A stretch of DNA of 47,486 nt, taken from assembly GCA_905178155.1 (NCBI GenBank), contig CAJINV010000006.1, forward strand, positions 153,965 to 201,450, written 5' to 3'. This DNA is from Amoebophrya sp. A120. Lineage: Eukaryota; Protista; Dinoflagellata. A program made the position numbers and the translations under genes. A model generated the notes under the pieces. The model worked only from the letters and a program-made list of their open reading frames with translations. It did no database searches and was not told where the DNA came from. This document shows, in pieces, positions 2,654 through 47,486 of this stretch. How positions within the stretch are numbered: position 1 is the stretch's first letter; every line of letters starts with the position of its first letter.

Positions 2654-3294
2654 TCAAAGGCGGCCATTTTTCCCCAGATGAACCGAAATTGACAGAATGT
2701 CGTAAACGAATTCTGTTGCGGTTTCTTGTGCTGGCTCAGCGACAAGCGTGAGAGCCATCGCAGTTTCGGGATAGACAGCGTTTATGTCCTCCTGCGCCCC
2801 AAAGAAGTAAAAGTTGTCCACGAAGATTAAAGCAATCACCCCTGACTGCCCCCAGATGCAGGAATCAAGGCGGCACTGAATCCAACCCAAAGAGCAAAGT
2901 CGCTCATTGCGGTATTTGGCCCATCCCATTGAGCAAAGACGCCATTGACCCAGTGAGCGGATCTAGGCGAGACATACACTGTGCAGTTGTACAGGCATGC
3001 CATTTCGAGGAAGGATGTGTTGATGAATTCACTTCCACCATCGACTAGCCAATTTTGTCCCAAAATGCCTCGGGCTCGAGTCATTTCTAGAAACTGCGTG
3101 CTGTGTGAAGCGCTTGGCTTCGTCCCCTTAGGCAAAACCCAAATGACAGAAAACCTGCAGAAAAGGTTCACCGCGTGCAAAATTGCATATCCATGCACAA
3201 AGAAGGTATCGAAAGCCAGCCAGTGCTCAAGATGCCTTCCTTGAATTCCCCCGAATCGAAGTCGAGGGGTGGCAGAGCTTCGAAGTCGATTCAA
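2654..3294 (-). pseudogene. Internally deleted Ty1/Copia pol: integrase core joined to an RT fragment
   Basis: Integrase-like FDTF...VDGGSEF...AHWVNG (2836-3294) followed by RT-like W...LCSLGWIQCRLDSCIW...IFVDNF (2654-2929); INT-before-RT order of Copia; the catalytic DD is degenerate. Confidence 0.75.
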
Positions 3295-3297
3295 GTT

Positions 3298-3335
3298 GTT
3301 CTTTGGTGCCTACAACATACAATTTTACGCGCCGT
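3298..3335. repeat. Junction motif copy 3
   Basis: GTTCTTTGGTGCCTACAACATACAATTTTACGC matches copy 1. Confidence 0.9.
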
Positions 3336-3357: not shown

Positions 3358-3596
3358 ACAACAACAAGGGAGGAGCCCAAATAAGCAGAGCACCACCGTG
3401 ATTCACCTAATTTCCTAAAAGAGATTGCAGATCTGTCAAGTTAACTATAGAGAAAACGGAAGCGCTTCCGAAATGCGAAACGCGAAAAGCGAAAAACCAA
3501 AGGGGGGCAGTAGAGACCTAGGAGAGTAAGAAGAGAGAGACAGCGGAAGCGCCTCCGAAAAGCGAAACGCGAAAAGCGAAAAACCAAAGGGGAGCC
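3358..3596 (+). repeat. Dispersed duplicate of 32518-32756
   Basis: Near-identical ~240 bp including GCGAAACGCGAAAAGCGAAAAACCAAAGGGG units. Confidence 0.9.
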
Positions 3597-28500: not shown

Positions 28501-29247
28501 TCTGACCCTGGGAGCAGCCACGGAATAAGAGCTCTCGGTCTCTCTGTTCGGATCGTAGGATAAAAATTGGTCATCTCGTCTCGCCGCAGGCCGGATTTCC
28601 ACTTGGCCGCGGCCAGGGCGCCGCGCAGGAGGAGCTCCACCACCTACGTCGCTTCTTATTATCACATCATCCTCAATCGTACTCGTCGCTGCTGGCCTCC
28701 TGGCGTCGTTTTGCTCCTGGTAGTACGAGCTTCCATAATTACCGGCGGAGGACAGAGTGGTGTTCACTGTGCCGTCGTGCGACGTCGCGTTATTTCGTTC
28801 ATGGGCGCGAGGGTCACGTTGCCCAACATCAACATCTCGTGCCGCTTGCCGCTCATACGCTGCCTCTTCTCGAACACCTTCTCCCGGTGGATGTTGTCCC
28901 ACGCCGGCTCCAGCATTTGCGGCCTGTGCATGACAAACTTTCGGCTCGAAATTATCGAATGTGGTCGCAGTATGCAACGCCGACGTTGCTTGTGTGGGAA
29001 CTGGGGCGACGGGTAAAGGATAGCTGGGTACGTCATGCTCTTCTTGGACGAAGCGCGCATGGTTATTTTCGAAGCGTCTATTCGTGTTACCCGGCACTGC
29101 TAAGTCGCGGCCGGCGTTAGAAGTAGCTCCACATGGCTGTCTGGCACCGTGCGGATCGGGGTGGTGAGGTGTAAAATTACGTTGGTCAGTTGGAATCGCG
29201 GGTCGTGGAGGATTGCCGTTGAAATGGTGGTTGCGCTGGTCGCTCAT
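19518..29247 (-). CDS. Multi-exon Mps1/TTK-like Ser/Thr kinase with TM helix, Pro/Ala/Ser-rich stalk and two tandem unknown modules
   Basis: IGKGGSAEV, ALKVV, HFDLKPANFLIV, DFG, YMPPEA, DVWALG (~26285-27580); TM VIVTIIAVCLLAGATGLAV (~25385-25445); introns ~26857-27141, 23303-23573, 22971-23219, ~22397-22611, 22085-22238, ~21029-21325, 20676-20789, 19964-20170 keep the frame. Confidence 0.75.
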
Positions 29248-30633
29248 AGGGTCCAGGTTGCGCCACAGTCAGAAGGAAGAGTCACTGGCTGTTAGGTAAA
29301 AAGAAAGGGGTGTTGCGCCGTTGGTCGATGTCGATGTTCTGCCGTTAGTTATTATACAACTTTTACTCGTCGAAAGAAATACTCACAAACCCTTTTCGGG
29401 GCGGCGGATGAGATACTACAACTGCATGCGCAAAAATCCGATCCTCGTGAAGAGGACTGCTCGTCCCGAATGCGTCTTTCAGCCTGTTCTCGCGCCCTTC
29501 GGATCTTCTCCACCCGCGACTACGAGATTGTAAAAACGCCGTCAGATGAGCAACAGGCTTGTGCTGCGCGCGGGTTTGGTGTTGGCCTCTTCTCGAATTG
29601 AAGGTAGATACAACTGCTCCATGCGTGCTGTCTTTGTTTTGGTTCAATTGTACAAATATTAAACTTCTTTCTAAAGATGAAAAGTCGACGCAGAATTATA
29701 GAATATCTTTGAAATTCCGTGCTGAAACTGAAACCGGTGGGGTGAATGCTGAGTGTCTTACAAAATTTTTTCTGCTCGTCCGGCGTCTACTTTTATCATA
29801 TCAGGAAAAATGAAACGGTGGAGAGTGAAAGCGGTTCATTTTTTCTAGATTCTCATCCACCCGTGTATCCATAAAACAATGTTGAGTGACTACAAAAGAG
29901 CTTCCAAGTCGTGCTACTCATTATACAGTAAAGTCCAGAAACGTTGCCGGCTGTCAAAGGCAGTCATCTCATGGAGGAATTAAATCTAGGGCTATGTCTA
30001 CGTACTGAAACAATGGTCGCCAATTATATACCGCAACCACAACGAACTGCCCGTGCCTGAAGCGATGTTGAAATAAAACGATTCTTTTATCAAAACGCAG
30101 AGAGTGGTGCTGAGACGATGCCACGACGACGAGAGGCGATCCGACAAAACGACTACATACGATATAGCTTTTTCATGAAGCGATTCTAATTGCATTTCGT
30201 GAAAAGAAGCAGATGATTTTCACAGGCAAGATCAGGAGTCTGGGCGATGATAAGGAAAAAAGGGCTTTCAATTTTGACTTTTATGAATTAGTGTTCATCT
30301 TGAGAGCTTCGCATTAGTCCCATTTCTGCATGCCAAGGTGTGTAATTTCAATGACGTCATAAACTGCGAGCCGGTGGTGCACTATGTTGGAAATGGATCA
30401 CCAGACTCACTGACATTGACCTTGACGTAGTTGATCTCATCGCAATTAAACGCTATCGGAGCAGGTAGTATTTTGAGAATAAGTAGGACTGTGCAGGAGC
30501 ACATAATCATGTCCATCTTCCTCCTGCATACTTGTTGGAAATGGATTACGGTGATGAACTATGTTGGAAATGGATTGTATATGCGTATTGTATTCTTATT
30601 TTTTCAGTTTTTGTAGATTAGTCGTAGTCCTGC

Positions 30634-31340
30634 CATGAGGCAAATGCCCAACAACTGCGGAGGGGTAGCGGAGGGTGTAAACGGCACATGCAGAATCGCA
30701 GTTCCGTCCGGGTAACAGAAGTTCAATAATAAATGCCATCTGTTTTCAAAAAGTATGCACTTTACAATTTTCATACTATCCGCAGCTAATTCTGGGTGTA
30801 ATCGACTGCAACTTGCCCTCCGCCACCCCTCCGCTAGGCGAGTGTCAAGAGGTGATACCATGCTGAAAAGCTTTCTATTCGTTTTTACTGTTGTTTTCCG
30901 CTTTTTTTGTCGGTATTGCAAGTTTTCAAAATTCAGCATGCTGTGAGGAACATGCCCAGCAACTGCGGAGGGGTAGCGGAGGGTGTAAACTGCACATGCA
31001 GAATCGCAGCGCCGTCGGGGTTACAGAAGTTGAATAATAAATGCCATCTGTTGTCAAAAAGTAAGCACTTTACACTTTTCATACTATCCGCAGCTAATTC
31101 TGGATCTAATCGACTGCAACTTGCCCTCCGCCACCCCTCCGCTAGGCGAGTGTCAAGAGGTGATGCCATGCTGAAAAGCTTTTTATTCGTTTTTACTTTT
31201 GTTTTTCGCCTTTTTTGCCGGTTTTGCAAGTTTTCAAAATTCAGCATGCTATGAGGAACATGTCCAGCAACTGCAAAGGGGTAGCGGAGGGTGCAGAAGG
31301 CACATGCAGAATCGCAGTGCCATCCTGGTAGCAGAAGTTT
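30634..31340. repeat. Tandem repeat, 308-bp period, ~2.3 copies
   Basis: AACTGC(GG/AA)AGGGGTAGCGGAGGG at 30653, 30961 and 31269. Confidence 0.92.
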
Positions 31341-31480: not shown

Positions 31481-31844
31481 TTCACAGACTCTAGGCAGTG
31501 AACTCAGGACTTGAATCATTGAGAACTTTGAACCTTCTCGACCTTTCAGTGGTCTCACCTTTCTCCGTTCGTTCTCGTGTGTTCAGGCTCTAACATTCTG
31601 CCTAGAGCTTGACGCAGAAACGTTTTCTCCCTTCTTTTCCTTTTTGCTTCGGGGATTGGCCGCGGGCAATCAACGACACAAACAACTACCAAGTCCCGAC
31701 CACCCACAGAGCGGGAGATCTCAAGCGCAATTTTGCCAAAGCGGTACACAGCTCCTGCGGGACAACAACAAAAGACCAAACCTCCGGCATTTCTGTGCGG
31801 AACGGCTACCAGCATTACAAATCTGATTTCTCATCTTCCGCAAC

Positions 31845-32561
31845 ATGGCAAACACGGGCGCGAAGGTCGAGCTCGTGCCGATCCACAAGAAGGCCGAGTG
31901 GGAGCCTTTTGAGTGGCGTCTCCGGAGCAACATCATCAATGTTGTCAAGGTCCCCGCCCAATGGGCTGCCTTCATGGCAGACGACAACTTGGTGGATTTT
32001 CAGCCCGCTTTGACCGCCCGCCAACGAGCCAGTTGGGACAATTTGGAGTCCGCCTTTACCGCCGCCATCCAGGGTGATGCGCTTCTCTTGGTCCAGGGTG
32101 CCCAGCGAACTGGTGTTCTGCAAGTTTTCCGCTTTTTGAAGCGTCAGTGGGGCCAGGAGAACAACCAGATCGACCAAGCTGCTATGTTCGCGAAGTTCAC
32201 CACGGAAAAATTTACTTTGGGCGGCAAGGACACCCCGGACTTCACGTTGTGGATTTGGGACAAGTACAGTTTGGCTTTGAAAATTCCCAACTACATCCCG
32301 GTCGGTGCCCAGCTGGAACACCACATGCGCCACATCTTGCGACACCTTTTGGACCCGGACTGCATGGGCAAGATCATGTCCGAACTGCGTGCCACCCCGG
32401 ACGCCCAGCTGCACTGGGAGAATGTCGGAATTCCCCGCGTTTTGGACTTTATCTCCTCCGGACAAGCATCCCAAGAGAAGGAGTTCCAGGCCCGTGTCAA
32501 CATGGCCTTGGGGAACAACAACAACAAGGGAGGAGGCCAAATAAGCAGAGCACCACCGTGA
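31845..32561 (+). pseudogene. Ty1/Copia gag-like ORF, truncated before the zinc knuckle and pol
   Basis: Pattern W.P.EWRL...AIQGDALLLV...VFRFLKRQWG resembles Copia gag; ends abruptly at NNNNKGG where the repeat element starts. Confidence 0.6.
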
Positions 32562-32579
32562 TTCACCTAATTTCCTAAA

Positions 32580-33502
32580 AGAGATTGCAGATCTGTCAAG
32601 CTAACTATAGAGAAAGCGGAAGCGCTTCCGAAATGCGAAACGCGAAAAGCGAAAAACCAAAGGGGGGCAGTAGAGATCTAGGAGAGTAAGAAGAGAGAGA
32701 CAGCGGAAGCGCCTCCGAAAAGCGAAACGCGAAAAGCGAAAAACCAAAGGGGAGCCGTGGGCAATTTATTAATAGAGTAGGAAGAGAGAGGGCGGAAGCG
32801 CCTCCGAAATGCGAAACGCGAAAAGCCAAAGGGGGGCCGTGGCTACTACTCAGTAGGGTAGGAAGAGAGACAGCGGAGGCGCCTCCGAAATGCGAAGCAC
32901 GAAAAACAACGAAGCGACCGGGGTGGGCTCCCTGATAATGAGCAGAGTAAGAAGAGAGAAAGCAACAGCGCCTCCGAAATGCGAAACGCGAAAAGCGGCG
33001 AGGACAGAAGGCAGGCCCTTCGCCTCTTACTAAGTAGAGACAGTGGCGACGCTCGGCTCCGCCTCCGGCGTTGTCTCTCCTTCCCTTCCGCACTAGCGAC
33101 ATCCGCGGCCCCCACGCTTAATATCCTGCGGGGCTAGTTATAGTTTGTATGCGCATGGGGACGCGTCCAGTTCTAGGAGGAGGGGACCCGGAGGGGTTCG
33201 CTGGCTCTTGGTCTTGGCATTGTCGCTAGGGACGCGGCTCGCCCGTGCGCTCAAGCACAACAGATCGACACAGACCACCGCCCCGCCCGTCTGCCTTTGT
33301 TTTGGCCGGGCGAGAGGCCGGGGCGGGGAGCGCGCGGAAAGCGAAGGCATGGATCCCAGTCGCAGCGCTTGGCCCATGCCGCGCCAAATGGCGCGGCGGG
33401 CCCTTGGTCGGTCGCACCAGCCGCAGCCTATTGCGGGGCCGGCACCCTGTTGTGCAGGCCCGAAACGAAAACGCTGGGCATTCGCGTGCGGGCGCTTCTG
33501 TT

Positions 33503-33540
<38 letters not shown>

Positions 33541-35210
33541 GCGAGATGAATATCGCGAGAAACTTCCCGGCGGGCGCACCAATGTAGCAGAGCGCAGCGA
33601 TAGGCGCCCCTGAGGGCCGCCGGCGCCAAGCCTCCACCGTGTTCGAGGCGCGGGCGGCAGCACAAAGCTGCGAGGGTTTCGCGAGGACGGAGACCAGGGC
33701 CATGGCAACAAATTCCACCCAAAAGCGCCGGCGAAGTAAATCAGGCTGGCAGCTCGCTCGTGGCTCGAGAATGAAAGCGCGCGCACTTTGCCCCACCAAT
33801 GGAAGCAAATGCAAAGAAATCCACGCGATTCATTGCGCGCAGAAAATTAATGGCGGGGAGGAGTCGACCCTGTTCACCACAGCAAGCCCAACCATCCAAA
33901 AGCGCAGGCGGATTATTGATGAGAAACCCCTCTTGTGGTTCGAAGAAAAAAGCGCAGGCCTCTCATCGGTAGAAGCTAGCACGCGACGCAAACCCCTGAG
34001 CGCCATCGTGCTCGAAAGCGATGGCGTTGCAAAGTGCCTGCCCATGGCAACAAGCCTAGCCCTTCTCGCAGCGAGAACCCGCCCGCGGAGCAAAATGCGG
34101 CGCCTGAAAGCGCTCGCGGTCGCGCCGGCGGTCCACACTGGCCAGCCTGGGTTTGCCGCGTGGGGCTTGCTGCCATCCAGCCGCCGATCTGCCCCGGCCG
34201 GATGCGGGGCTCCCGCCCCACATTGGCGCGCGGCGCCACCCTGGGGAAATGCGCTGCATCGCCCCCCCCCGCCCCAGACCCCCCGTATGCGCGCGTGTTT
34301 GTAGTGCGCGCGGCATGTTTGTAGTGCGCGCGCCCTTTCGGTGTATCCTGTCGAAGATCGCGCCGGCCCGGCGCTTGTTAGTTCGTTGTTAGCTTGCGTT
34401 ATGTTGCTCGACTGGCTCTGTTGATAACGGCGCAGCCCCTTGCGGGCGGGGGCCGCGTCAATCTGTTGCGGGCGCACGGGCGGGCAACATCCCTCGCGAC
34501 AATATTTAGACCGAGCAAGCAAAAACGCCCCCGGGGCCCGGGCCTCCACGAACTGGGCGCCTCCCCTTTCGCTTTCCTTTGCAAACTAACTGCGCAACGT
34601 ATGAGGTGCGGAGCTTCGCCAAGATCGCTCGCGTCGGTCGCTATTGAAAAAAAACGCGCGGGGCTGTGTGCATACCATTCAAAACAAGGGGGGGGCTCGT
34701 TGTAATGAAAAAAAAAGCGGAACAAAGCCAAGCGGTTGGGCTCGCTTTTCGCGTTTCGAATTTCGGGGGCGGCTTTCGCTTCTCTCTATCTCTTCGCTCT
34801 GCTAATTATTTCCCCGGTCGCTTTCTTCGCTTTTCGCGCTTCGCTTTTCGTGGGTCGCTTCCGCTTTTTCTCTGCTTACTATATTCATTGTCTTGGGGCT
34901 CTTTTCTTTTTCGTTTTTCGTGTTTCGCATTTCGGGAGCCGCCTCCCCCTTCTCTTTGCTTACTATGTTGATTATTTTAGGAATAGGCTATGTATTTTTT
35001 TCGCTTTTCGTGTTTCGCAATTCAAGCAAGGAGGCCAGCTAGTACCTGCACACTTTACACAACACACACACACACACCAAAATTAATTAGCGGGGAGATA
35101 ATTAGCACACACATACACACACACACACACGACCGGGGAAATAATTAGCGGAGGAGATAGAAAGAACCGAAAGCCGCCCCCGAAATGCGAAACGCGAAAA
35201 ACGAGCGCTG
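32580..35210. mobile_element. Putative non-autonomous foldback-like element with arrays of CCGAAATGCGAAACGCGAAAA motifs
   Basis: About 5 direct motif copies at 32620-33000, reverse-complement copies at 34740-35020, another direct copy at ~35175-35205; GC-rich core with no recognisable CDS; exact ends and TSD not found. Confidence 0.5.
33508..33539. repeat. (GT)16 microsatellite
   Basis: Direct inspection. Confidence 0.95.
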
Positions 35211-36383
35211 CTATTTTTCCGCTCTCCATAAATGCTCGGGACTCTCCCACCAATAAAATTCTGACCAGCTTTCGCTATTCTACTTTTCACCCATCTCTCG
35301 CTGTAGCAAGTTTAGACCGAATTATTTTCCCTCGCGGTAGATTCATTGTACTAGCGACTCCAAGAACAACATTGATTGCTGCAAAGCTAGAAACTTCCCT
35401 GATAGTCCTCTGGAAAATAATTGGCACATAAGCAACAAAAGAAGCAAAACTACACAGCTCTGGACTTTTCATCGGCCCACCTTCAGCGCAGGTGTTTACC
35501 CAGAGAAAACAAAGCCCACACAGTCACGAACACGTTTGCAGGCAATTCAGCTCGCCGTCCGTGAGGACGGCCGACAAGGCCGTGGAACACAAATTGTCGT
35601 GGCGTAATTTCTGTTTTCCTTTCAACACTTCGATGTTGAGGACGAAATGATAGAAGTTTATTCATCCATCGCAGCAAGGGGAATTATTCGGTAACACAGC
35701 AGGAAGCATCATCACCGAAAGAGATGAGCGAATGTTATAGTATATCTCGCATCATAATAGCGCACCACTCTGTAATAGGTGGATATTTCAATTTCATCCA
35801 TATCCAAGTGAGTAATGAAAGACCAGTAAGTATCTAGTTCCTGACTACACCACTTCAGCTCACCGCCGCTTTTTTCTGCCGTTTCGTCCCCTGATTCGCT
35901 GCCTTCTTGTTTTTATCCACTGCAAAAGTATCGTACTCGTAGTAATTGCATTTATGCATCACAAATCTAGTAATCAAGGGAAATCCGCATTACAAATTAC
36001 ATTTGTATTGCTGAGCCAATTTGTATTTGTAATGCACTTTATACTAGTACGATAGGATACTTTTGCACAGCATAGTTTTCCCTTTTTCCCGCCCCGACGT
36101 TACTCACGTCTTCTGCAGCGTATCCTGAGTAAAAGCGTCCCCATATTACCAGAGTCAAGATGGAAAATCTGCTAGACAGATCAGCCAACTCTGGTTGTTT
36201 CGCATGACAAGTTTGTCCTGGTAGTGTAATCCTGTTTGGCTACTTTAGCAGCATCACAGATCTAGAATATCATGCTATTTCTAGCATCACAAATCCCTCC
36301 AAAACACGACTAGAAAAAGCTCCTCATGTGGCTTCGCATGAGGCACTTTTTTGGCATGCAGATTTGCATGACAACTCTGGGGC

Positions 36384-36849
36384 TGTACGAAAGTACTACT
36401 TGGACACGGACCGAACTAACGCACACGAAAATAAACTTGTATAACCAAAACAATGCATGAACGAGTTGTAGAACATCGATGGGCATAGGGGTGCAAAATA
36501 AAATGGTTGTAGATTCAGATTGTATGTTCTCCTTAGCAACTTCCGCGTATTCTCTGTAGGAATTTGCTCAACCTTGAGCCAAAATGGCTACGTTGAAAAG
36601 GTTCCTTCATGCAATACAAACTTCAACAACCTCAAATCTGTCATGCTGTTTTGACATTCGGCACGGAACTGCCGTATCGTAGTTCTCATGCGACTTGTAG
36701 ATCATGCGCATTACAGATTTGCATCAATTTGACGAGTGGGCTGGTCTTTGAACGTCAGTGCATTTTAGGAACCTAGTGTAAAAGCTTAGCGGAGAACGAG
36801 TTCATTTGTGGTCTTAGTTCGATCTGATTCCGAAGTCCTTATGCATACA
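36384..36849 (-). repeat. 3' LTR
   Basis: Direct repeat of 47021-47486 with 4 substitutions counted by eye. Confidence 0.96.
36573..36594 (-). other. DinoSL motif in 3' LTR
   Basis: AACGTAGCCATTTTGGCTCAAG: 21/22 match to DinoSL, followed by GT. Confidence 0.88.
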
Positions 36850-36858
36850 CGCCCCTAG
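36850..36858 (-). promoter_or_regulatory. Short polypurine-tract-like sequence
   Basis: CTAGGGGCG abuts the 3' LTR on the minus strand; a second CTAGGGGCGTG at ~36973-36983. Confidence 0.5.
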
Positions 36859-38337
36859 TCGCGACGATGTAATGCTGTTAGCCATCGGAACGACTAATCT
36901 TGAGGTCATCAGATTGAACCACAAACGAACGAAATATAGAAAAATATGGTAAGGATATCCGTGTCCATGTCCCACGCCCCTAGGCACGCCGATGCGGTTT
37001 CCATCTCGTCCGATCGGTGTGGCTACGACAGCGACGCGGAGGTTGGAAAACCTTAAGCAACGTGATGAAGTTAGAAATAAAATCATACAGGTAAAGGAAT
37101 GTAATTATCCACGTGGTTAAACTTGTTCTGGTGCCATGACATGCAATTTATGCATGACAAAAAGCACAAAATACCAGTAAACTGTCCTCTTTTTCCTTCG
37201 TACGGAAATGGAACCGAAGAGCAACTTCTGGTGTGGTGATGACCAAACTCCAGCTTGTCGCACGTTCGAAGATACCGCATCCAAAACGTAGCGCAACCGT
37301 AAGCCCAGAGCTTGCCATCCATCGACAAGTAAAAAAAATATAGTGAATTTGAAAAAATGCATGACAAACTTGTGTTTGCGATTTAAGTAAATAAAAGCGA
37401 CTTCGTTGCAAATTCCTGGAGCAGTTTGCGAAACAACACGGAAATTTATCCCGTCCCTGTCTCCTCTCCTGTGGTGTCTTGCAACTTAGTCCATACGAAG
37501 TCTGAAGAAAGGAAATCTAATTTCTTTGTATTGTTATCTCCCCCATGCCAGTGCGTTTTCTGCCTTTGAGATACTAGAAAGCTTTTCATACGTCTCGCCT
37601 TGTCCCCCTCTGTATCTGGAGAAAGACGTCAATTTCTGTACCTCAAACAACATAAAAATCAAGAAAGTTCGTTAATTCAACCTTTCCGCCTTGTCCGCCT
37701 GTAAAACCGTCGAAGTTTTTCAAAAGATGTCGTGAAAGAGAAACAAAGTCAATTCCTAGCGCGGACCGTTTACGCCTAGAATCCATCGATTCTGTTCTGC
37801 AAAGTTGTGTGAAAAGGTGGAAAAACAAGAGAAAAACAACAAAAACTACCATGATCGTGAAGAGAGATCAACAGTTTTGAGGTGTAAACTGGAAGATGCG
37901 GCGCGTGGTAAAATATGAAAGAAGGTGCCGCAGACCAATTTGTGATGCTAAAATGGCTACGGAAATAAAGTAGAAGCGCGTCGACTTACATCATCGCGAT
38001 CGTCGCACACCGTCCTAAGTGCAACAGCACAAAGGAAAGCAAGAAACAAAAAAAAACGCACAGTTGTAATTTTTGAGTTTAATCCGCTGTTGTCGTCAAC
38101 ATCATGTCACGAAGAGCTTCGTGACGTGCTTCTGACGACATTGGCGGGCGAACAAGCAAAAAAATAATACTTCTGGGGGTAAGAGATAGGCTTTAGGTGC
38201 TATTTGAGATGTTTTGATACTAATTAATCGGCCGTCTGTCATGCAGAGAAGTGAACTTTTGATGTATTTGACCCGAAAGTCTTTGCATATGGAGTAAAAC
38301 AGCATGACAGACCAGCTTTTAGACATGAAGTAGCTTA

Positions 38338-41300
38338 CTATCCTAAATTTTCTTTCAAGCCCGCCTCAAACAAATTCTTTCTTTCCACGACTACCGTCGG
38401 AACGACCTGTGCACGCGTTCCACTGAATAAAATGTCAATCATTCTACTGACCCGCGAAACGTTGAAGAGGGGAACTTGGTTCACGCAGCGGCTGAAATGG
38501 TCCGCGAAAACATTGAATTTGCCCGCAACGTGCACCAAGGTGATACAGTGCAAATCCTTCTTCACCTTCAAACACCACCTGTGCAGCCGTCCCATCGAGG
38601 TTTGCGCGATCCGGTCCATGTGGTCACTCAAATTCACGTGGTCCGTGAAGACCACCATCGGCAACCCCTTGAAGTGTTTGTAGACCTCGGATAAAAATTT
38701 GAAAAGCACAAACGCCTCCCGGCTTTGGGTCTCCCATCGGCGCTGGGTGTTGTCAAAGACGAAGTTTTTGCTATAAAAAATTCTCAAGCGGCAGCCGATA
38801 GCCTCCGAAAATGTTCCGACAATCGCCGCCCCGTACTCACTTGCATCCAACCAGAAACAGATCGGATTGTCGGCGGAGATCGCTTCATAGTTGATGTTTT
38901 CGATGTACACCTCGGCCGCGATCAAATTTTGCAAATCCTTGACCGCCTGCTGTGCTTGGGGATCCGTTAGAAAAGGCTTGAAAATTGCTCCTTTTTTCAA
39001 GTACTTCCGGAAGTGGTGGTAGTGTTTTCCAAACGTGGGGAGCCACTCCCTCAAAAACCCAAGCATGTGGGCAAAAGTCACCAACTCCGACCGCGTGTTG
39101 ATTTCCTTTTGCGCAATTTGTGCTGCTCGATCCGGGTGAATACGCTTTCCACGCCTCGACCAGAGGTGCCCGAGGTACTGCCCCTCCCGTCGTAATCCGC
39201 TGCTTTTCCGTAGTGAAAACCGAAACCCGCTGTGGATGTTTGCAAGAAAATTTCTGCGCAGCCTGTCCTCGATCTGGGAGCACTGTTTGTTGTCTTTGTC
39301 CTGTGAAGCTGAAATAAAACCGGCGTCATGCATGCAGGGGTCTTTTGCATCTTCTTCTGCTTTTGCATCTGCATCGAAAAGCGCCCCAGATCGAGAAGTG
39401 CCAGAAGTAACCCCTTCAACCGTGTGGGACGGTAGGTGCTCCGCTCTTTGCCTCGCCCGCTCCAGTTTCGCCTTGTTTCTTGCAGACACTGCTTGGACGC
39501 GTTTGCGCCTGTGGATACCCGGCGGGCGGATGCCCGGCAACTTCTTCTTTTGCTTGTCGTCCTGCACTTGTTCCTGCTCCTGCGGCGCCTGGTTCTCGTC
39601 TTCCCCTTGCTGAACGTCCGTTTCTTCTTTTTCTACCGCGTCATCATTTTTCACCGCCTGTTCCTGTTGTTCCTCCGCTGCTGCGGAGACCGAAGAATCT
39701 GCAACCTGCGCTGCGGGCGGTGCAGTTTCAACTTCCTGGGCGTTGTCAACCACTACCCCGCCGGATTCTTGTTCATTTTCCAGCCCAAAGAACTCAAGAT
39801 CTTTGTCCAGCAGATCCTGTTCTTGCTGGTTCTGGAAGTCCGGGTTGGTGTTGAAAACGGGGTGGTAGCGGGTGGGAGGAGTGGCCCAGCCTTTGTCCTT
39901 GACTAGCCACTCACCTGTAAACATATCCAGGGCGGTGACCTCGATGAACTCCTTTTTTTCAATATCATAGAAGAAACGATGAGCGGGAACGATCTGGCCT
40001 GCAATCCCGGTTGCAACAAGGCGGTCGCCATGGATGTCTTTCTTTTTTCCGTCCGGTCCTTGAACGATGTAGCCCGTCGCCCCAAGATGCGAAACCACTG
40101 TGAACGCGGCCTCACTGTTCCGCCCTGTAAGCTTCTTTTTGCTTTTCTTTTCCCCGGGGTCAGTGATAAAAACACGGGAACCGATCGGAAACTTGTCCAA
40201 CTTCGCGCCACTGCGTCGTAGGGTTTGCCTTTTTGCGGTTTCCGAGGATTCCAATCTTGAATCCAAAGTCAGTAGCGCGCCGTCGCGTAGGACTTGAAGC
40301 TGCTTTTCCACAACTTCATTTGGCGACGCTTCAACAAGTTCCTTCTGACTCAACAGAGTCAGCGCCAGGGGCATCTTGGGCTTGAAGTGGTTCCTTTTCT
40401 CGAACGGGCTGACATATCCGAGGCATTTCAGGGGGGTAATTCGGGCGATGAACTGCAGCTGCGGGGCCAAAGTTGACCACTTGCTTTTCAAACTCGGGTC
40501 TTTCATCACCATAGCAATGAGGCTGTCGATCATCGGCTTGTTGGGGGACTCGACGGCGGTGTTAGTTTTCGGTCTGTACGCTTTGCTTTCCCTCTGCGGA
40601 ATGTCCAGCAACCCCATCAACTCCGATAGTTCTCCCTCCGAAAATGCTCCGTCCGAGCGGAGGACTTCGGTGTTGTAGCTGGTGTCCGGAAAAACGATGG
40701 AATTCAGGTGGTGCGCCACCTCCCGTAGTCCCGTGCTCTTGCAGGGGATCAACCACATCCAGCGCGACACCATGCAAACCACCGAAAGCAAGTAGCAGTA
40801 TCCAAACTCATCTTCTGCCAGCGGCCCGATGTGGTCCAAAATCAAGGCGACAAACAAACCAGAATAAACTTCCGGGCCGTCGAAGAACGGGTAAAGGTTT
40901 CCCCGCCCCCGAATACACTTGCAGGTGAGGCATTTTCGCACGAGGTCCAAAACGTTCTTTCGGATTCCGGGCCAGGTGATCATCAAAACGCCGTCGATAA
41001 TCCGGAACGTTGCTTCGCCGTTGACATGTGCAAACTGTCCAAGCACCATCCACACGACCGCCGTCCGCCAGTCCATAGTGTATTCTTCCACGAAGGCAAA
41101 GTTCTTGACAATCGTGCCGCCCGCGGGGATAGCAAGTTTACCTTTGTCGAACAAAAATCCGCCCCGGAGCTTCATACTGATAGCCCGAGACTCTACGACC
41201 CGCGCCTCCTTCGTGCCGAGTTGCCCCACAACGTCCATTCCTTCTAAAAACCTCACTACTGGTCCGTAGTGCTTGTCCGCTCGGGTTGCTGCGATAAACT

Positions 41301-44300
41301 CGGCACTGGAAACTCCCAGCATCGGAATAAACGCGCCGTAGACGTCGTCTTGTTCTTCCGTTGGTTGTGTCTTGAAAAATTTTACAACTTTTGTTGGCCG
41401 ATTGGACACAAGCAACGAGTCGCCCACCTCCTGCAGCTGTGAAGCGAAGATCTTTTTGTAACCTTTTCCGACCCTGGAGCTGCTGCTTCCGGCTTGGTTC
41501 CGACGCACGAAACGGACATCGACCTCGTCAAACTTAACTTGAACCTTTGCCGCAGAATCGTACACCTGCACCTGGTCGACCGGAAGCATGTCCGGCCAAA
41601 TCTGTTCGCAGGTCTGGGTGATGGTTTCCTTGCTGGAATCGTCCTGGAGGTCGGAAATAGCATCTACAGCTTCTTCTGACACTGGAAGCCAGTCTCCCGC
41701 GCTGTAGTCTGCATTCCCGCACAAAATGTCCTCTACTAGCTGCGCCGGGTCCTTTGGTCCTTCTGGGTCCAGTATCTTCTTTCCGTGCCCCCGACACGTG
41801 TAGCGACGGGTCACCGCTTCCCCGTGCCGCATAGTCGTAATTTGTTCACAGTTGTCACAAACTTCGGCCGGGTCGTTGGCGAAGAAGTGGGTCCCGGGAA
41901 CAATCCCAAAAACTGCGGTCTTGCGGATGGAGAAGTTTTTGTCTGGCACTCGGCAGAGGTAGAACCGGTGGGAGTCCGGATCCCCATGGAAAAATCCCTC
42001 GTGATCGTCCGGAACGGAAGGTGGTAGAACAGGAGCATCGGCCCGGTTTCCCATTGTTCCGAAAAAATTTTTCGTAAAGAACGCCCAAGCCGCACGGAAC
42101 GCCTCCTCCCTTGTCTTGTAGCAACGCGGAGAAACCCGGAAAAGCTTCGTTTTGTCCCGGGGCTTCTTTTCCTTCGCGGTTGTGTTTCGAAGGTAGACGA
42201 CCCAGATTTTTCCTGCCGAAGAATCACACCAATAGATTCTTTCCGGCCTCCAGTTGTCTTCCTCCTCGCCCGGCGCCAGAATTTCATCGGCCTGAACTGC
42301 AGCCCCAGCTGCTATCTCCCCTGCGTCCTGGATCTCCTCCAACAACGCCTCTTGTTGCTGAGGGTCAGCCTGTTCTACCGGATCTTTCGCCTTTTTTTTT
42401 TTTTCCTTCTTGGCTTCGCGAACGAAAGGTCTGCCGATTCTGCGAACTGCAAGCTGTAGCGCTTGGGGACTGGCCGTGGAAGAGGAATTTGCGTGGCTGT
42501 CGTCAGAATCTGACCCAGATTCCGACCCGCTTGTATCCGTTTCGAACTCTTCGTCTTCCGTGCCCGCTGGTGGCTGTGTGGTTTTGACCTTCACGACCTC
42601 AAACCCGCCCAAGTTGCACTTGGAATTTTCTCCCGCGACCTGTGCGCGGCTCTCCTGTTCTTCGTCCGAGTAACCATCGCCCCCGCACGCAACATCATCG
42701 AGGTAGACCGCGTTGAATTCTTTGCCGTCTCGATCCTTCAGCGCGCCGTAGGTTTTGGAGGTGACGGTCTGGAAACAGGCTGGAGCAGGTTTGGGTCCGA
42801 GCGTAAGGACGGTCGGTTTCAACAGTCCGCGATGGGTCGACATCGAAAGCAGCCTGCTAGTGGACTCCGAGAGCCGAAGCTCGTTGTACCCAATTTCCAA
42901 GTCCTCAAAATCGTAGTAGTCCTTCAGCTCCATGAGCTGCCAAACCTCCTGGGGGTTCAACGGTTTCGCGCCGAAATTCTCGAAGATGTCATTGAGTTCG
43001 ACGTAGTCATTGAGAATTCTTCCTTCGTGTCTGTTGCCGGATCGCGATCCGACAAACACTGGCGAAGCCGCAGGCGGTGTCGCATCCCCGGCACTGTCCA
43101 CCCAGCGCGCCGTCTTCTGGAAAACCATTTTGTCGTAGTGGAAGTCGGCCTGCAGCTTTGCATATTCCCCGACCGGGTACGGCGGGATAATGCGCAGCCG
43201 ATTCTCACAACCCGGGATGACGAACATTTGTGCAAAATAGCCCTTGACAAACGGCGCCCGGTTTCCTTCTACGAAGTACGCGGCCGCCAGCTGCTGAACC
43301 AGTTTCAAATAACCCTCCCGCAACCGTGGCGGGGCCTCGCACAATTTCGCCAAGTGGTTCACCACTGTGGTCTGGTGCTCTTTTCCTAATGGGTTAATAG
43401 GAATTTCTGCCATGTACTTTGCCCGGAGCTTGTTCAGGTAGTCCTTCAGCTCGCTCACCGAAATCTGTGTATTTTTTCCAATCGGTTGGACCTTCGGCAG
43501 CTGCGGGTTAATTCGCGTCGGGGAATCGTCAGCGAAGGTTACTTTCTTTTCCTTCTTCCGTAGTGGTGGTTCTTTCGGCTTCAAATCTCCTGGCCAAACC
43601 GGAACAGGGTCCGAGCCTACTGCGGTAGCGACAACTGGGATGGGCGCAAATTTCTTATTTTTGTCCCCCTGCGTCCGCAGCACTGTCAGCTTGGCGAACG
43701 GGAGGTCTTCAAGTTCTAAAACTTCTTCCGAATTGTTCAGAACATGCACCGCGGCCTTGTTGGCGTTTTCCGTAACAACAGGAGGAAAAGCTCCGCCCTT
43801 TTCCGCCAGTTCGTCCGACGGCTGCAACAGAAATTTCGCCCCTGCCCCGAAGTCAACTCCAGCCGGAACGCTAGCGCGGTCAATGTTCACGATCATCGAC
43901 CCAAACGGCGGAAGCGTAAGTTCAAAAGCGTCAACCCCGACGACAGGCGTCAACTTTGCTACCCGCTTCAGCGCCACCGGTGTGGACGCTTTTCCCCGTG
44001 GCACTCGGATGACCTTCTTCGAACCGCCGGGGGGCTTGACCTCGATAAAGTCCTTGTTGATGACCCCGAGGGCCTCAAGGTCTTGTTCCGACAGCATCAA
44101 CTGGTCCTCCGCTCCACCAACTGCGAACCGGACCCAGGAGTTGTAGGCTTTTGTCGTTTCCTTGTACTCCTCCGGCTGCTCAAGAAAACCCAGACGCAAG
44201 TAGCAATACTGCTTGACCCCGAACTCCGTACCACAGGCCGAGATTGCTTTTTCTTCCGCGACCAGGTCCTTGCGTTTTCGGAAACAGGTTTCGGGCAGGT

Positions 44301-46047
44301 CCAAAGCCTCCAGCGCCTCGTAGGTTTTTTCGCCCATCAAAGATACAAACTCGTCACCCGTATCTGCGAGAGCCCAAAACGTAATTGGTTTCTCGTTTTT
44401 GCTGGCGCCGTAAACAACCGTCTTCATGTAGTAGCCGGTCGGGTCTTTGTTGGGGTTGATAAAAGCCGAAGCGGAAGGGGAGGACACCTTGACAGCATTT
44501 AGGCGACGAATCGAACCGGTGCGAGGAGTCGTGGACGGAGAACCAACTTCGTTTTCATCTTCTTCTTCCTCGAAATCGTCCTCCTCTTCTTCGTCCTCCT
44601 CGGTTTTCGTCGTTGCTGAACGAACCATCTTTGCCTTCCCGCCTTTCTTTCCTTTGCCTTTTTGCTTCTTGAACTGCGAATACGGGAGGTAGTCGCACTG
44701 CTGTCCTTCGCGCAAATCTCCCTCCTGGAAGTCCGTCGGGCACTGCTTCGCATACTTTGGGTCGGTGGGCTTGCGATGTTTTCCTTTGCACGTGCTGCAG
44801 TAGACGCCGTTCTTGGTCAGCGCGACCATGTTCTCCTGCATGTGCTTCGCAAATTTCCGATGCGCCTCACGGTCGTGGTTCACTCCACCGCACTTGTCGT
44901 GGTCGGTAACGTCCGGGCCCTCGATCGGCGTGCCGCCACCAGCTGCAGCTCGCTGCGACTTGTCCTCCAGCGTTTCTTTGGTGGTGACGTTGTTCACGGT
45001 CCTGGCGGGTGGGGTGGTTTTCTTTTGTTCTGTGTCGGCCTTCTTCTGTCTCCGGTGGCGCTCGCACTCGTCTGTTGCGATGTCCTCCAGTTCGACCAGA
45101 ACCTTTCGTGGACTTTGGTCGGACAAAGAAATTTTGTGGGTGCGGAAGTAACTGTCGATGTCCTTCGCCACCCAGTCCGGGAGGCCCTTGTTGTATTTCA
45201 ACTCCGCGAGGAAGTCCCGCCGGTCCTGCGAGCCCTCCACCTCGTCCTCCAGTTCCCAGGTCGTATTTGCAATTTTCTCACGCTCTGCTTGCCAGGAGGC
45301 GAACGCAGACTCAACGGCCGCCGTGAACGCCCGCAAACTGCGAGCGAGGTCCCCGCCCTTCATCTCGAACTTGATCGCGTCCAGTTTTTGCTTTGCAATG
45401 TCCACCGAAACCAAAACGCTGAAGCCGTAGTGTCGGGACAGGATGTTCTTGAAGTCATCCAGCGCCGCGGCGTACATCTCTTTGTCGAGTTCTTCGAGCG
45501 AGTACCGGGATAACTGCATTTCCAGGGCTGCAAAAACGTTTCTTGCCGTTTCGTCTTTGCACTTCTGTTTGCTGGTTGCCGTCTGCAAGTCCGACCAGGC
45601 GACTGCGGGCTTGGAATATTTGGAACGCCAGGTTTGGAGATCCGTGAGGGTTTGCTTCCGGTCCTCCGCCGTATCCGATCGGAAGGTTGGAAGCGTGATA
45701 GCACTTTTTGCATAATTATCGCCGCCCCCTTCTGCGCCTCGGCGTAGCTGCTGAAACAGGAAATCCCGCAAGTCCCGCTCCATATCTTCCCCGGCGGCCC
45801 CTTCACGCGGCCGCGGTCCGCTTGCAGTGTACCGAACAGAACCCGCGGCAAGCGTAATATCAAAATCTGCCCGCTTCGCCCCGGGGAAGACTTTGCGCAA
45901 GATGTCCAAGACCTTGCGACGCGCTAAAACCTTCTCCACCTCGGTCATCTTTTTCAAATCTTTCTTACGGTCCACCACAACGACCTCACAGGCACCCCTT
46001 TCGACCTTGAGCCTTTCCAACGTTCCGACGCCTTGCAGTTTCTCCAT
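38338..46047 (-). CDS. pol: Gag-Pol polyprotein: gag C-part / Cys-His knuckle - protease - dUTPase-like - RT(N) - AP2-like - integrase - RT(C) - RNase H
   Basis: CSTCKGKH..C; ALADTG (44356-44364); SPVFV, RILNDYVELN, LTLGPKPAPACFQ, YLDD (42694-42705); integrase H..WP..CLTC, LDHIGP, RSDG, AVE (40549-41030); YLGH (~39170); LDAS, REA, TDH, ADHFSR (38490-38850). Confidence 0.93.
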   Translation of the reverse strand: MEKLQGVGTLERLKVERGACEVVVVDRKKDLKKMTEVEKVLARRKVLDILRKVFPGAKRADFDITLAAGSVRYTASGPRPREGAAGEDMERDLRDFLFQQLRRGAEGGGDNYAKSAITLPTFRSDTAEDRKQTLTDLQTWRSKYSKPAVAWSDLQTATSKQKCKDETARNVFAALEMQLSRYSLEELDKEMYAAALDDFKNILSRHYGFSVLVSVDIAKQKLDAIKFEMKGGDLARSLRAFTAAVESAFASWQAEREKIANTTWELEDEVEGSQDRRDFLAELKYNKGLPDWVAKDIDSYFRTHKISLSDQSPRKVLVELEDIATDECERHRRQKKADTEQKKTTPPARTVNNVTTKETLEDKSQRAAAGGGTPIEGPDVTDHDKCGGVNHDREAHRKFAKHMQENMVALTKNGVYCSTCKGKHRKPTDPKYAKQCPTDFQEGDLREGQQCDYLPYSQFKKQKGKGKKGGKAKMVRSATTKTEEDEEEEDDFEEEEDENEVGSPSTTPRTGSIRRLNAVKVSSPSASAFINPNKDPTGYYMKTVVYGASKNEKPITFWALADTGDEFVSLMGEKTYEALEALDLPETCFRKRKDLVAEEKAISACGTEFGVKQYCYLRLGFLEQPEEYKETTKAYNSWVRFAVGGAEDQLMLSEQDLEALGVINKDFIEVKPPGGSKKVIRVPRGKASTPVALKRVAKLTPVVGVDAFELTLPPFGSMIVNIDRASVPAGVDFGAGAKFLLQPSDELAEKGGAFPPVVTENANKAAVHVLNNSEEVLELEDLPFAKLTVLRTQGDKNKKFAPIPVVATAVGSDPVPVWPGDLKPKEPPLRKKEKKVTFADDSPTRINPQLPKVQPIGKNTQISVSELKDYLNKLRAKYMAEIPINPLGKEHQTTVVNHLAKLCEAPPRLREGYLKLVQQLAAAYFVEGNRAPFVKGYFAQMFVIPGCENRLRIIPPYPVGEYAKLQADFHYDKMVFQKTARWVDSAGDATPPAASPVFVGSRSGNRHEGRILNDYVELNDIFENFGAKPLNPQEVWQLMELKDYYDFEDLEIGYNELRLSESTSRLLSMSTHRGLLKPTVLTLGPKPAPACFQTVTSKTYGALKDRDGKEFNAVYLDDVACGGDGYSDEEQESRAQVAGENSKCNLGGFEVVKVKTTQPPAGTEDEEFETDTSGSESGSDSDDSHANSSSTASPQALQLAVRRIGRPFVREAKKEKKKKAKDPVEQADPQQQEALLEEIQDAGEIAAGAAVQADEILAPGEEEDNWRPERIYWCDSSAGKIWVVYLRNTTAKEKKPRDKTKLFRVSPRCYKTREEAFRAAWAFFTKNFFGTMGNRADAPVLPPSVPDDHEGFFHGDPDSHRFYLCRVPDKNFSIRKTAVFGIVPGTHFFANDPAEVCDNCEQITTMRHGEAVTRRYTCRGHGKKILDPEGPKDPAQLVEDILCGNADYSAGDWLPVSEEAVDAISDLQDDSSKETITQTCEQIWPDMLPVDQVQVYDSAAKVQVKFDEVDVRFVRRNQAGSSSSRVGKGYKKIFASQLQEVGDSLLVSNRPTKVVKFFKTQPTEEQDDVYGAFIPMLGVSSAEFIAATRADKHYGPVVRFLEGMDVVGQLGTKEARVVESRAISMKLRGGFLFDKGKLAIPAGGTIVKNFAFVEEYTMDWRTAVVWMVLGQFAHVNGEATFRIIDGVLMITWPGIRKNVLDLVRKCLTCKCIRGRGNLYPFFDGPEVYSGLFVALILDHIGPLAEDEFGYCYLLSVVCMVSRWMWLIPCKSTGLREVAHHLNSIVFPDTSYNTEVLRSDGAFSEGELSELMGLLDIPQRESKAYRPKTNTAVESPNKPMIDSLIAMVMKDPSLKSKWSTLAPQLQFIARITPLKCLGYVSPFEKRNHFKPKMPLALTLLSQKELVEASPNEVVEKQLQVLRDGALLTLDSRLESSETAKRQTLRRSGAKLDKFPIGSRVFITDPGEKKSKKKLTGRNSEAAFTVVSHLGATGYIVQGPDGKKKDIHGDRLVATGIAGQIVPAHRFFYDIEKKEFIEVTALDMFTGEWLVKDKGWATPPTRYHPVFNTNPDFQNQQEQDLLDKDLEFFGLENEQESGGVVVDNAQEVETAPPAAQVADSSVSAAAEEQQEQAVKNDDAVEKEETDVQQGEDENQAPQEQEQVQDDKQKKKLPGIRPPGIHRRKRVQAVSARNKAKLERARQRAEHLPSHTVEGVTSGTSRSGALFDADAKAEEDAKDPCMHDAGFISASQDKDNKQCSQIEDRLRRNFLANIHSGFRFSLRKSSGLRREGQYLGHLWSRRGKRIHPDRAAQIAQKEINTRSELVTFAHMLGFLREWLPTFGKHYHHFRKYLKKGAIFKPFLTDPQAQQAVKDLQNLIAAEVYIENINYEAISADNPICFWLDASEYGAAIVGTFSEAIGCRLRIFYSKNFVFDNTQRRWETQSREAFVLFKFLSEVYKHFKGLPMVVFTDHVNLSDHMDRIAQTSMGRLHRWCLKVKKDLHCITLVHVAGKFNVFADHFSRCVNQVPLFNVSRVSRMIDILFSGTRAQVVPTVVVERKNLFEAGLKENLG

Positions 46048-46170
46048 CAGCTCCTCGTATTTTTCGAGGTCCGGGTCCGGCTGGAGGAAATCCTGCTCAC
46101 TATTTTCGTCTTGTTGGGAAGTATCTCTTCGTTGTCGGGTTGCGGCCTGTCTACTTGTAGTGTGAACTTG

Positions 46171-46935
46171 TTAATGGCGGGCGGGTGGGGGGTTCAAAAA
46201 CTGGGCTGTCGGCCGCGAAGGCTGTCCCATCGTCGCTGGTGCTGGGCCGCTGCTGCTTAGCTGCGAAAGCAGGACACTACCGCGCTCCGGTGCGTAGCGG
46301 TTGTTTGCTGAATTCTGTGGGACATTGTCAGCGCGGAATGAAAATTGCGACTGCTCCTGCGTCGGGTGTGGCGGAAAGTTTGGTTGTCCTTGCTGCATCG
46401 CAGCGCCGGCTGCGGTCGTTCCAAAAATCCCTTGCGCCGCCCCGTTTTGTTGTTGTTGTGCGCGCTGGAGGAGCGGCCCGAGATGTGTGACAAGGTCCTG
46501 CATGTTCAGGGTAACTTGTTGCCCGTGGATTACTGCGCGCCCCGGCTCCACGTGAACTCCTTGCTGTGCAGGTATTTGCTGCTGCGGTACAGGATGCTGG
46601 TAGGGAGCTTGTCCCGGAAAGGCCCCACTACTGCTCGATGCAGCAGCTCCTTGCGTGCCGCTTCGTCCCAATAGCCCGCGCCCGCTTGTTCCTCCGTGCT
46701 GCTGCTCAAGCGGGTCATTTGTAAAGCTGTTCTGCGACATGTGAACGCTTTGGTTGCTGCTCGGGCTTGGATTAGCGCCACCCGCGCCCTGGTACCGGTA
46801 AGGCTGGAACTGCTGGTCTTGTTCCCACTGTTGCTGCTGTCGGTACTGGGCCTGGTTCTGGTGCACCCGGTCCCAATTGTATCGCCGTCCGCTCATGTTG
46901 AAAATGGGTTTTTTCTTACTTGTATTTGTGTGCAT
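46171..46935 (-). CDS. gag: Gln/Gly-rich ORF1 (gag N-terminus), in frame with gag-pol across one TAA
   Basis: Starts 70 nt after the PBS; conserved in the sister copy at 1018. Confidence 0.8.
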   Translation of the reverse strand: MHTNTSKKKPIFNMSGRRYNWDRVHQNQAQYRQQQQWEQDQQFQPYRYQGAGGANPSPSSNQSVHMSQNSFTNDPLEQQHGGTSGRGLLGRSGTQGAAASSSSGAFPGQAPYQHPVPQQQIPAQQGVHVEPGRAVIHGQQVTLNMQDLVTHLGPLLQRAQQQQNGAAQGIFGTTAAGAAMQQGQPNFPPHPTQEQSQFSFRADNVPQNSANNRYAPERGSVLLSQLSSSGPAPATMGQPSRPTAQFLNPPPARH

Positions 46936-47004
46936 TATTCAATCGTGAAAGGGGTAAAAGTTTTGTAGTACGTAAATGTTAAAAGTTTGGTCCTATGGCT
47001 AGGT

Positions 47005-47018
47005 CCGGCGATGCACCA
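47005..47018 (-). promoter_or_regulatory. Primer binding site, probably tRNA-Gly
   Basis: TGGTGCATCGCCGG, 2 nt after the 5' LTR; 1 nt shorter than the sister PBS at 933. Confidence 0.72.
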
Positions 47019-47020
47019 GT

Positions 47021-47486
47021 TGTACGAAAGTACTACTTGGACACGGACCGAACTAACGCACACGAAAATAAACTTGTATAACCAAAACAATGCATGAACG
47101 AGTTGTAGAACATCGATGGGCATAGGGGTGCAAAATAAAATGGTTGTAGATTCAGATTGTATGTTCTCCTTAGCAACTTCCGCGTATTCTCTGTAGGAAT
47201 TTGCTCAACCTTGAGCCAAAATGGCTACGTTGAAAAGGTTCCTTCATGCAATACAAACTTCAACAACCTCAAATCTGTCATGCTGTTTTGACATTCGGCA
47301 CGGAGCTGCCGTATCGTAGTTCTCATGCGACTTGTAGATCATGCGCATTACAGATTTGCATCAATTTGAAGAGTGTGCTGGTCTTTGAACGTCAGGGCAT
47401 TTTAGGAACCTAGTGTAAAAGCTTAGCGGAGAACGAGTTCATTTGTGGTCTTAGTTCGATCTGATTCCGAAGTCCTTATGCATACA
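47021..47486 (-). repeat. 5' LTR
   Basis: TG...CA termini, direct repeat of 36384-36849, followed by the PBS. Confidence 0.96.
47210..47231 (-). other. DinoSL motif in 5' LTR
   Basis: AACGTAGCCATTTTGGCTCAAG|GT, 21/22 match to DinoSL. Confidence 0.88.

Follow-up and report, generated by a model that had tools for sequence, protein, structure and literature searches.

Retrotransposons with long terminal repeats (LTRs) are classified by the order of the whole domains of pol; in the element described here, from Amoebophrya sp. A120, the reverse transcriptase (RT) itself is interrupted. The window that we analyzed is a stretch of 47,486 nucleotides (nts) of contig CAJINV010000006.1 (assembly GCA_905178155.1, positions 153,965 to 201,450, forward strand). 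An earlier reading of it, made from its letters alone and called here the original prediction, listed protease (PR)-RT-RNase H (RH)-integrase (IN) as the Gypsy order and PR-IN-RT-RH as the Copia order; it omitted the Gmr1-like Gypsy elements, whose integrase lies upstream of an intact RT (described in the parts cited of PMC8220671 and PMC8557442). It was aware of no described RT(N)-IN-RT(C)-RH order, and we likewise found no description of that order in the literature, in a search that most subscription journals and Repbase lay outside. In Ty3, cDNA synthesis benefits from the association of RT with integrase (PMC5371799, cited in part). The Amoebophrya genome paper notes LTR elements in main-text mentions that give no structure, and its supplements may bear on the subject (PMC7789003).

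The element is a Gypsy-like, LTR-flanked retrotransposon at 36384-47486 on the minus strand, on which all of its features given below lie. Its polyprotein reads Gag-PR-RT(N)-AP2-like domain-integrase-RT(C)-RNase H in a single frame.

The integrase lies inside the reverse transcriptase

The polyprotein is encoded by a stop-free open reading frame (ORF) of 2,610 aa at 38338-46170, which we searched with domain hidden Markov models (HMMs) built from 12 seed relatives. The N-terminal half of RT (RT-N; 42676-43194), with the fingers, the motif A Asp, motif B, and the YLDD hairpin (42705-42694), was matched at aa 993-1165 (7e-31). It is followed by an acidic linker of 135 aa (linker A; 42271-42675), an AP2-like domain (aa ∼1305-1377) with a Cys/His module (aa ∼1385-1480; together 41731-42258), the integrase (39871-41313; aa 1715-1936, 3e-44), and a second acidic linker (linker B; 39286-39870). 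After these comes the C-terminal half of RT (RT-C; 38920-39270; aa 2301-2417, 5e-19), with the helix that follows YxDD, motif D (GFRFSLRK, in GFRFSLRKS at 39228-39202), the primer grip (YLGH, 39177-39166), and the thumb. RNase H (38488-38868; aa 2435-2561, 2e-22) has a D-E-D-D catalytic set, with LDASEY at 38850, and the stop codon is at 38338-38340. The integrase also matched foamy virus IN (1.6e-9). Its motifs ILDHIG, RSDGA, and AVESPN are at 40842, 40659, and 40557, with D-x33-E spacing, and alignment places a zinc-binding region before this core and a tail after it; we take the tail to be SH3-like from its motif.

The motifs are thus in one frame and at the places where the original prediction had put them. 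It had estimated ∼1,130 aa between the RT halves and ∼99% identity between the LTRs; the values were 1,134 excess residues, by clade-built HMMs, and 99.14%. It had also seen no second integrase after RNase H, and no domain of the element is duplicated or missing. The catalytic sets of protease, RT, integrase, and RNase H are all present, and the GC content at third codon positions (GC3) is similar throughout the ORF (0.56 to 0.69).

A profile of RT-N with nine locus relatives (A4) aligned with residues 68-221 of Ty3 RT (4OL8), and a profile of RT-C and RNase H with seven relatives (A5) aligned with residues 223-477. The best match of A5 was Ty3 (6e-23); that of A4 was cauliflower mosaic virus (CaMV), followed by Ty3, and foamy virus RTs were also matched. 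The two halves tile Ty3 RT end to end and therefore together make a single RT, with its break immediately behind the YxDD hairpin. We take the break point to be a surface loop ahead of the next palm helix. The nested architecture is confirmed: the integrase is inside the RT, right after the YLDD hairpin.

Two RT hits flanking rve had been expected from HMMER. They were obtained with the clade-built HMMs but not with Pfam: on the whole protein and on cut pieces of it, RT_RNaseH was above the cutoff (5.8e-9), Integrase_H2C2 was below it, and neither RVT_1 nor rve gave a match. Because these two models miss the protein, elements of this kind would escape pipelines that depend on the two. No Hint or intein family matched the whole protein at E ≤ 0.1, in a Pfam scan that also misses its RT and rve and in which the linkers were not scanned alone. 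The single-sequence predicted fold of RT-N had a predicted local distance difference test (pLDDT) score of 36. We considered PCMHD, which lies before RT-C, as a relic YxDD and dropped it; it resembles only the more distant P0002 group, and the closer relatives have YIDD, FLDD, or YVDD.

Read-derived contigs and copy number

Two contig sets, X1 and X2, came from one public sample. Because this sample may be the window's own source, the sets are a separate assembly and not independent biology. In X1, one contig of 7,035 nts spans 38060-45094, including both junctions, with 36 substitutions and no gaps. In X2, two contigs (38127-42512 and 42514-44715) without loose ends lie a single base apart. 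The joint table of X2, which is complete, lists neither a joint within the ORF nor a canonical-order junction; none of the 15 X1 joints listed, from a total of 60, is inside the ORF. Misassembly, a concern raised with the original prediction, is unlikely because one X1 contig crosses both junctions.

Contig depth in X1 was 47 in the flank, 79.5 in the body, 119 in the 5′ region shared with a truncated copy at 464-1673, and 149 in the LTR; these steps, in a measure that is not copy number, are compatible with about two copies of the body. The truncated copy of the family occupies 462-1678 of the window, on the plus strand, and ends near 1673; it is ∼90% identical in the LTR and ∼97% identical in the 5′ ORF.

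Over 38345-42984, X1 and X2 differ at 17 listed sites, 15 of them by transitions (P = 4.5e-6 versus random letters). Contig differences were first read as noise, a reading given up on this transition excess. They point to polymorphism among at least two collapsed, young, near-identical copies, with no measurable selection since the copies split. The window has A at nearly all sites that vary among the read-derived contigs, which may be explained by ambiguity codes written as A. The integrase had been described as complete, and its D-x33-E core is, but the first His of the zinc-binding site (aa 1710; 41042) is Leu in the window; both read-derived contigs have His there. At 46171-46173, the window has an in-frame TAA that is CAA in X1, and therefore the gene probably starts ∼255 codons further upstream, which would give a frame of ∼2,860 codons. 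The Gln-rich in-frame ORF that ends in this TAA (46171-46935) is the probable N terminus of the polyprotein. Three RNA runs with the same species label had 1, 1, and 2 matching reads, numbers that are uninformative on expression. Two contig sets presumed to be from RNA, and one more contig set from the DNA sample, matched the element over short patches only and are likewise uninformative on expression.

Relatives have an uninterrupted reverse transcriptase

When 1.84 billion representatives were searched in full with HMMER, 3,287 matches at E ≤ 0.001 were obtained, and the best 150 of these were examined. Word-index searches contributed 4 and 15 further proteins, and a metagenome scan gave at least 11 loci. 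We compared 190 proteins, near-duplicates within clusters included, and 182 had a domain match. The order was RT-RH-IN in 100 of these, IN-RT-RH in 13, and RT(N)-IN-RT(C)-RH in 1, the element itself; the rest were partial. Among the 123 proteins with both RT halves, the element alone had a split RT. Its excess of 1,134 residues between the halves compares with 57 in P0007, an apparent 33 in P0163, and a median of 4. RT was contiguous in 10 of the 11 metagenome loci listed; L010 was set aside as evidence of order, as it has a stop 10 residues past the YxDD equivalent as well as an internal stop. All informative relatives had the canonical or the Gmr1-type order. Two proteins were rejected as split relatives: P0038 (IN-RT(C)-RH), with a gap of 125 aa and entry at mid-thumb, resembles an IN-first element that has suffered a deletion, and P0150 (RT(C)-IN) has a weak N-terminal fragment match. 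A word-index search for RT-C/RH among shorter proteins and four scans of viral contigs found nothing.

The closest relatives among the matches listed were P0006 to P0009, P0011, and P0156, and the source name of P0009 is an Amoebophrya sp. A120 protein. Members of this unnamed clade are 25 to 49% identical to the element per domain. In the RT-N tree (34 rows), the element grouped with P0006, P0007, P0011, and P0156 (support, 96/97). The other three trees were made with a quick method, with 13 of the 39 panel rows left out. In the RT-C tree (20 rows), the element was in a group at 96 with P0006, P0007, P0011, and the P0002 set, the interior of which was not resolved; in the RNase H tree (21 rows), it was sister to P0007 (98); and in the integrase tree (24 rows), it grouped with P0006 to P0009 (95). 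Judged from these trees, all four parts fall in one clade. An origin of the two RT halves in different RT clades, which had been raised as a way for the original prediction to fail, is not what was found: both group with P0006, P0007, and P0011.

The element keeps 14 of 22 outgroup-conserved columns in RT-N, 6 of 15 in RT-C, 16 of 22 in RNase H, and 24 of 33 in integrase. The corresponding values for canonical relatives are 11 to 14 of 14 to 20, 7 to 8 of 15, 17 to 19 of 22, and 16 to 25 of 32 to 33. By this count, retention in the element is close to that in canonical relatives in every part.

Two observations concern the relatives themselves. Locus L002 (3324-10553) is a close relative with canonical order and a P0011-type protein; its gag-pol frame is interrupted by four in-frame stops, of all three kinds, and it is probably decayed. 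L001, L003, L004, L006, L008, L009, and P0002 belong to a widespread, apparently unnamed metagenomic Gypsy-like group with CMDD or LMDD active sites, which also has an AP2-like and Cys/His module ahead of integrase. Four cluster members of this group are filed under the names of bacterial metagenome-assembled genomes, probably through misbinning.

The interrupting block corresponds to the module after RNase H

Downstream of RNase H, the relatives have first an acidic linker, then an AP2-like domain and a Cys/His module, and last the integrase. On sequence comparison, the block inside the RT here is this whole post-RNase H module, complete from the linker through the relatives' natural integrase C terminus. 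Linker A is partly like the linker between RNase H and integrase of P0006, with which its aa 1204-1240 align (shuffle P = 0.0013); likeness to the post-RNase H linkers of P0011 and P0007 was not significant in the shuffle test. Linker B joins the block to RT-C and has no counterpart in the aligned relatives. Its 195 codons are open, which was so in 1 of 5,000 shuffles of its bases. In P0007 and P0156, an insert of 57 residues (at least 57 in P0156, which is truncated) directly follows xxDDxxWGG, which is the element's split point.

The AP2-like identity of the domain ahead of integrase, also part of the original prediction, has moderate support. Its predicted fold has three strands and a helix (pLDDT, 65 to 79 over most of residues 1-70), and its top structural match (VIA) was the AP2 domain of PfSIP2, an ApiAP2 protein (Z, 5.5; root mean square deviation, 3.6; 58 aligned residues), with PH domains within 1 Z. 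There was no Foldseek match at E ≤ 0.001, no Pfam AP2 match, and no usable match in the ESM Atlas.

A possible two-chain reverse transcriptase and its alternatives

We see about an even chance that the element is active and that its protease excises the integrase block, leaving a noncovalent, two-chain RT whose halves meet in cis. That it is a natural split RT, a pol architecture beyond the Gypsy and the Copia/Gmr1 orders with a palm made from two protease-released chains, could equally well prove right or wrong. The linker-AP2-like-integrase block would have left its place after RNase H for a post-YxDD loop that had already expanded, either through duplication and deletion or through recombination of one copy with another. 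The halves would meet within the polyprotein or the particle. Cleavage at predicted protease sites in linker A (near aa 1242) and linker B (near aa 2225) would free the integrase, and the RT left behind would be nicked: RT-N would hold all three catalytic Asp, and the helix beneath the palm would come from RT-C, as would the primer grip, thumb, and RNase H. The candidate sites belong to a loose motif, hydrophobic-[KRNQ]-[ARNK]-[VI], which occurs at aa 392, 557, 734, 1242, and 2225, near domain borders, and also at aa 91; it is also ahead of the AP2-IN module in three relatives.

On this reading, the element would have transposed in split form at least once, as the original prediction had also proposed. 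The argument for autonomy is indirect: the LTRs were recently identical, there are signs of at least two collapsed copies, and X2 has neither a canonical-order junction nor a canonical sister of ≥80% identity. Against this, the more distant relatives that were found are all canonical.

Several further points weigh against a working two-chain RT. No relative with the split order was found among the 190 proteins or the 11 loci listed, and so there is no evidence that the architecture persists; the split has been seen in a single young family. Of the 17 changes between X1 and X2, 7 were synonymous, against a neutral expected fraction of 0.34 (P = 0.35), which shows no depletion of amino acid changes. 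The signs of a second copy come from contig depth and from two sets made from the same sample. The cleavage motif is both weak and circular, because it was drawn from the same sequences and had 6 matches versus 3.3 expected. The likeness in sequence of the 57-residue insert to the element's linkers was marginal or absent (P from 0.03 to 1.0), and therefore only the shared position of the insert is established. Finally, the terminal branches of the element are long in all four trees (1.45 in RT-N and 1.35 in integrase; longer, at 1.66 and 1.91, in RT-C and RNase H), which makes its exact placement unsure.

The alternative that survives best, although we think it unlikely, is that the element is active and uncut: RT would work as a single chain from whose palm the integrase loops out, or a cut on one side would leave a permanent RT-IN fusion. 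The evidence from the intact frame and catalytic residues is the same for this as for the two-chain reading, and both linkers are long and acidic. According to a review, Ty3 cDNA synthesis was rescued by a CA-RT-IN construct and not by a CA-IN construct (PMC5371799). A site-like motif stands at the matching place, ahead of the AP2-IN module, in P0001, P0006, P0007, and P0011, which argues for cleavage. In addition, integrase must multimerize on cDNA ends, for which tethering at both of its termini would be awkward.

The rearrangement may instead have killed the polymerase, the element being a passenger that owes its copies to a helper RT or to segmental duplication and whose frame is intact only because it is young. 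The uniformly canonical relatives, the neutral look of the changes between copies, and the indication of only about two copies fit this account. It too is improbable, in our view. No canonical-order sister at ≥80% identity appeared in X2, either as a joint or as extra depth; the break sits exactly at the single site where relatives tolerate inserts; and linker B is an open stretch of 195 codons that the relatives lack.

We give little credence to the idea that splicing rejoins the RT, with the integrase block as an in-frame intron, so that spliced RNA would yield RT and unspliced RNA integrase. In-frame GT..AG pairs exist that would leave 32 or 37 residues from YLDD to GF, versus 29 to 30 to roughly the same motif in four relatives, and Amoebophrya, the host of one clade member, has many noncanonical introns (as the cited part of PMC7789003 describes). 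Frame-keeping splice pairs are cheap, however, because 40 arise once GT, GC, and GA donors are allowed. Retroposed copies of spliced RNA would be visible in the DNA contigs of X2, which have no joint that skips the block, and both linkers read as protein.

An assembly artefact or a chimera of two elements is very improbable: the window does resemble a collapsed consensus, and the X2 contig break is near the first junction, but the gap-free X1 contig, the abutting X2 contigs, the single clade for all parts, the similar GC3, and the absence of duplicated or missing domains argue against it.

Other features of the element and the window

The 5′ LTR (47021-47486), whose first base is the end of the window, and the 3′ LTR (36384-36849) are 466 nts each, have the ends TGTA..TACA, and differ at 4 positions. 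Two nts past the 5′ LTR is a putative primer-binding site, TGGTGCATCG (47009-47018), and a short purine-rich tract, CTAGGGGCG (36850-36858), which is weakly like a polypurine tract and may serve as one, adjoins the 3′ LTR. The Gag-like region (44698-45945; aa 76-491), which has a Cys/His knuckle around aa 458, matched L002 in tblastn (1e-17) and P0007 in blastp (3e-7). The aspartic-protease-like region (44011-44448) was recognized by its LADTG motif (44370-44356) and by sequence comparison; it matched no Pfam protease family.

The flank of the 3′ LTR (35900-36400) is a very high-copy repeat with a summed X1 depth of ∼90,000 and many joints, and it may be like an introner or a miniature inverted-repeat transposable element. 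A motif of 31 to 42 nts is repeated at 423-464, 1679-1720, and 3294-3335 and probably forms the termini of another mobile element. At 2836-3309, on the minus strand, is a fragment of rve (Pfam, 3.6e-6). A protein kinase gene at 23509-29268, also on the minus strand, apparently has at least two long exons; its downstream ORF matched Pkinase (6e-28) and is followed by a long low-complexity tail. A 308-nt unit is present in ∼2.3 tandem copies at 30631-31339, tandem units of 81 to 89 nts occupy 32589-32997 (within 32518-32997), a 98% identical copy of 239 nts is at 3358-3596, and inverted copies are near 34740-35206; an adjoining ORF of 244 aa (31827-32561) had no Pfam match. This set of features is possibly another mobile element.

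Significance and comparison with known systems

Activity of the element would mean that an RT palm can assemble from two chains or tolerate a loop of 1,130 residues. The break, at Ty3 residues 221/223, would then be a natural split point, of use in designing RTs that are split or assemble conditionally and in loading RT with cargo, and the element would allow a direct test of what RT-integrase coupling is needed during cDNA synthesis. If the proposed origin is true, the relatives with a 57-residue loop would show an evolutionary path to a split RT. Further such elements may sit unrecognized in protist genomes.

Among described systems, permuted polymerases offer a partial parallel. The internally permuted RNA-dependent RNA polymerases of Permutotetraviridae and Birnaviridae show that a right-hand polymerase tolerates a moved catalytic loop (PMC7508674), and the Naiad and Chlamys Penelope-like elements tolerate a swapped order of endonuclease and RT (PMC8557442). 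As far as the cited parts of these sources describe them, they differ from the element in being one compact chain or a swap of whole domains, and neither has in its palm a stretch of 1,130 residues with a second enzyme.

The Gmr1-like elements are a precedent for movement of the integrase upstream within Gypsy (PMC8220671 and PMC8557442, in part). Their integrase precedes a complete RT, whereas here it follows YLDD. The IN-RT-RH proteins P0032, P0108, and P0152, Gmr1-like by order only, were outside the element's clade in all four trees. The element had no Copia-type Pfam match, and its profiles matched the Ty3, CaMV, and foamy virus RTs instead.

The unnamed protist-type clade (P0006 to P0009, P0011, and P0156, with the P0002/L001-L009 group adjoining) shares with the element the AP2-like domain and Cys/His module that precede integrase, the D-x33-E spacing (P0006 and P0007), and an insert after YxDD (P0007 and P0156). 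It differs in that its informative members all have the order RT-RH-AP2-IN.

With Ty3/Gypsy (Ty3 RT, 4OL8; Gag-Pol, 7Q5B), the element shares TG..CA LTRs, a site like a primer-binding site, a single frame for Gag-PR-pol, RT and RNase H of Ty3 type, and a foamy/Ty3-type DDE integrase with an HHCC zinc site (the first His from the contigs). It departs from that order, PR-RT-RH-IN with a contiguous RT, in that its integrase is inside the RT and not after RNase H, and we file it as Gypsy-derived and atypical. Whole chains make up the asymmetric homodimer of Ty3 RT, as described in the part cited of PMC5371799; the palm of this element is in two pieces.

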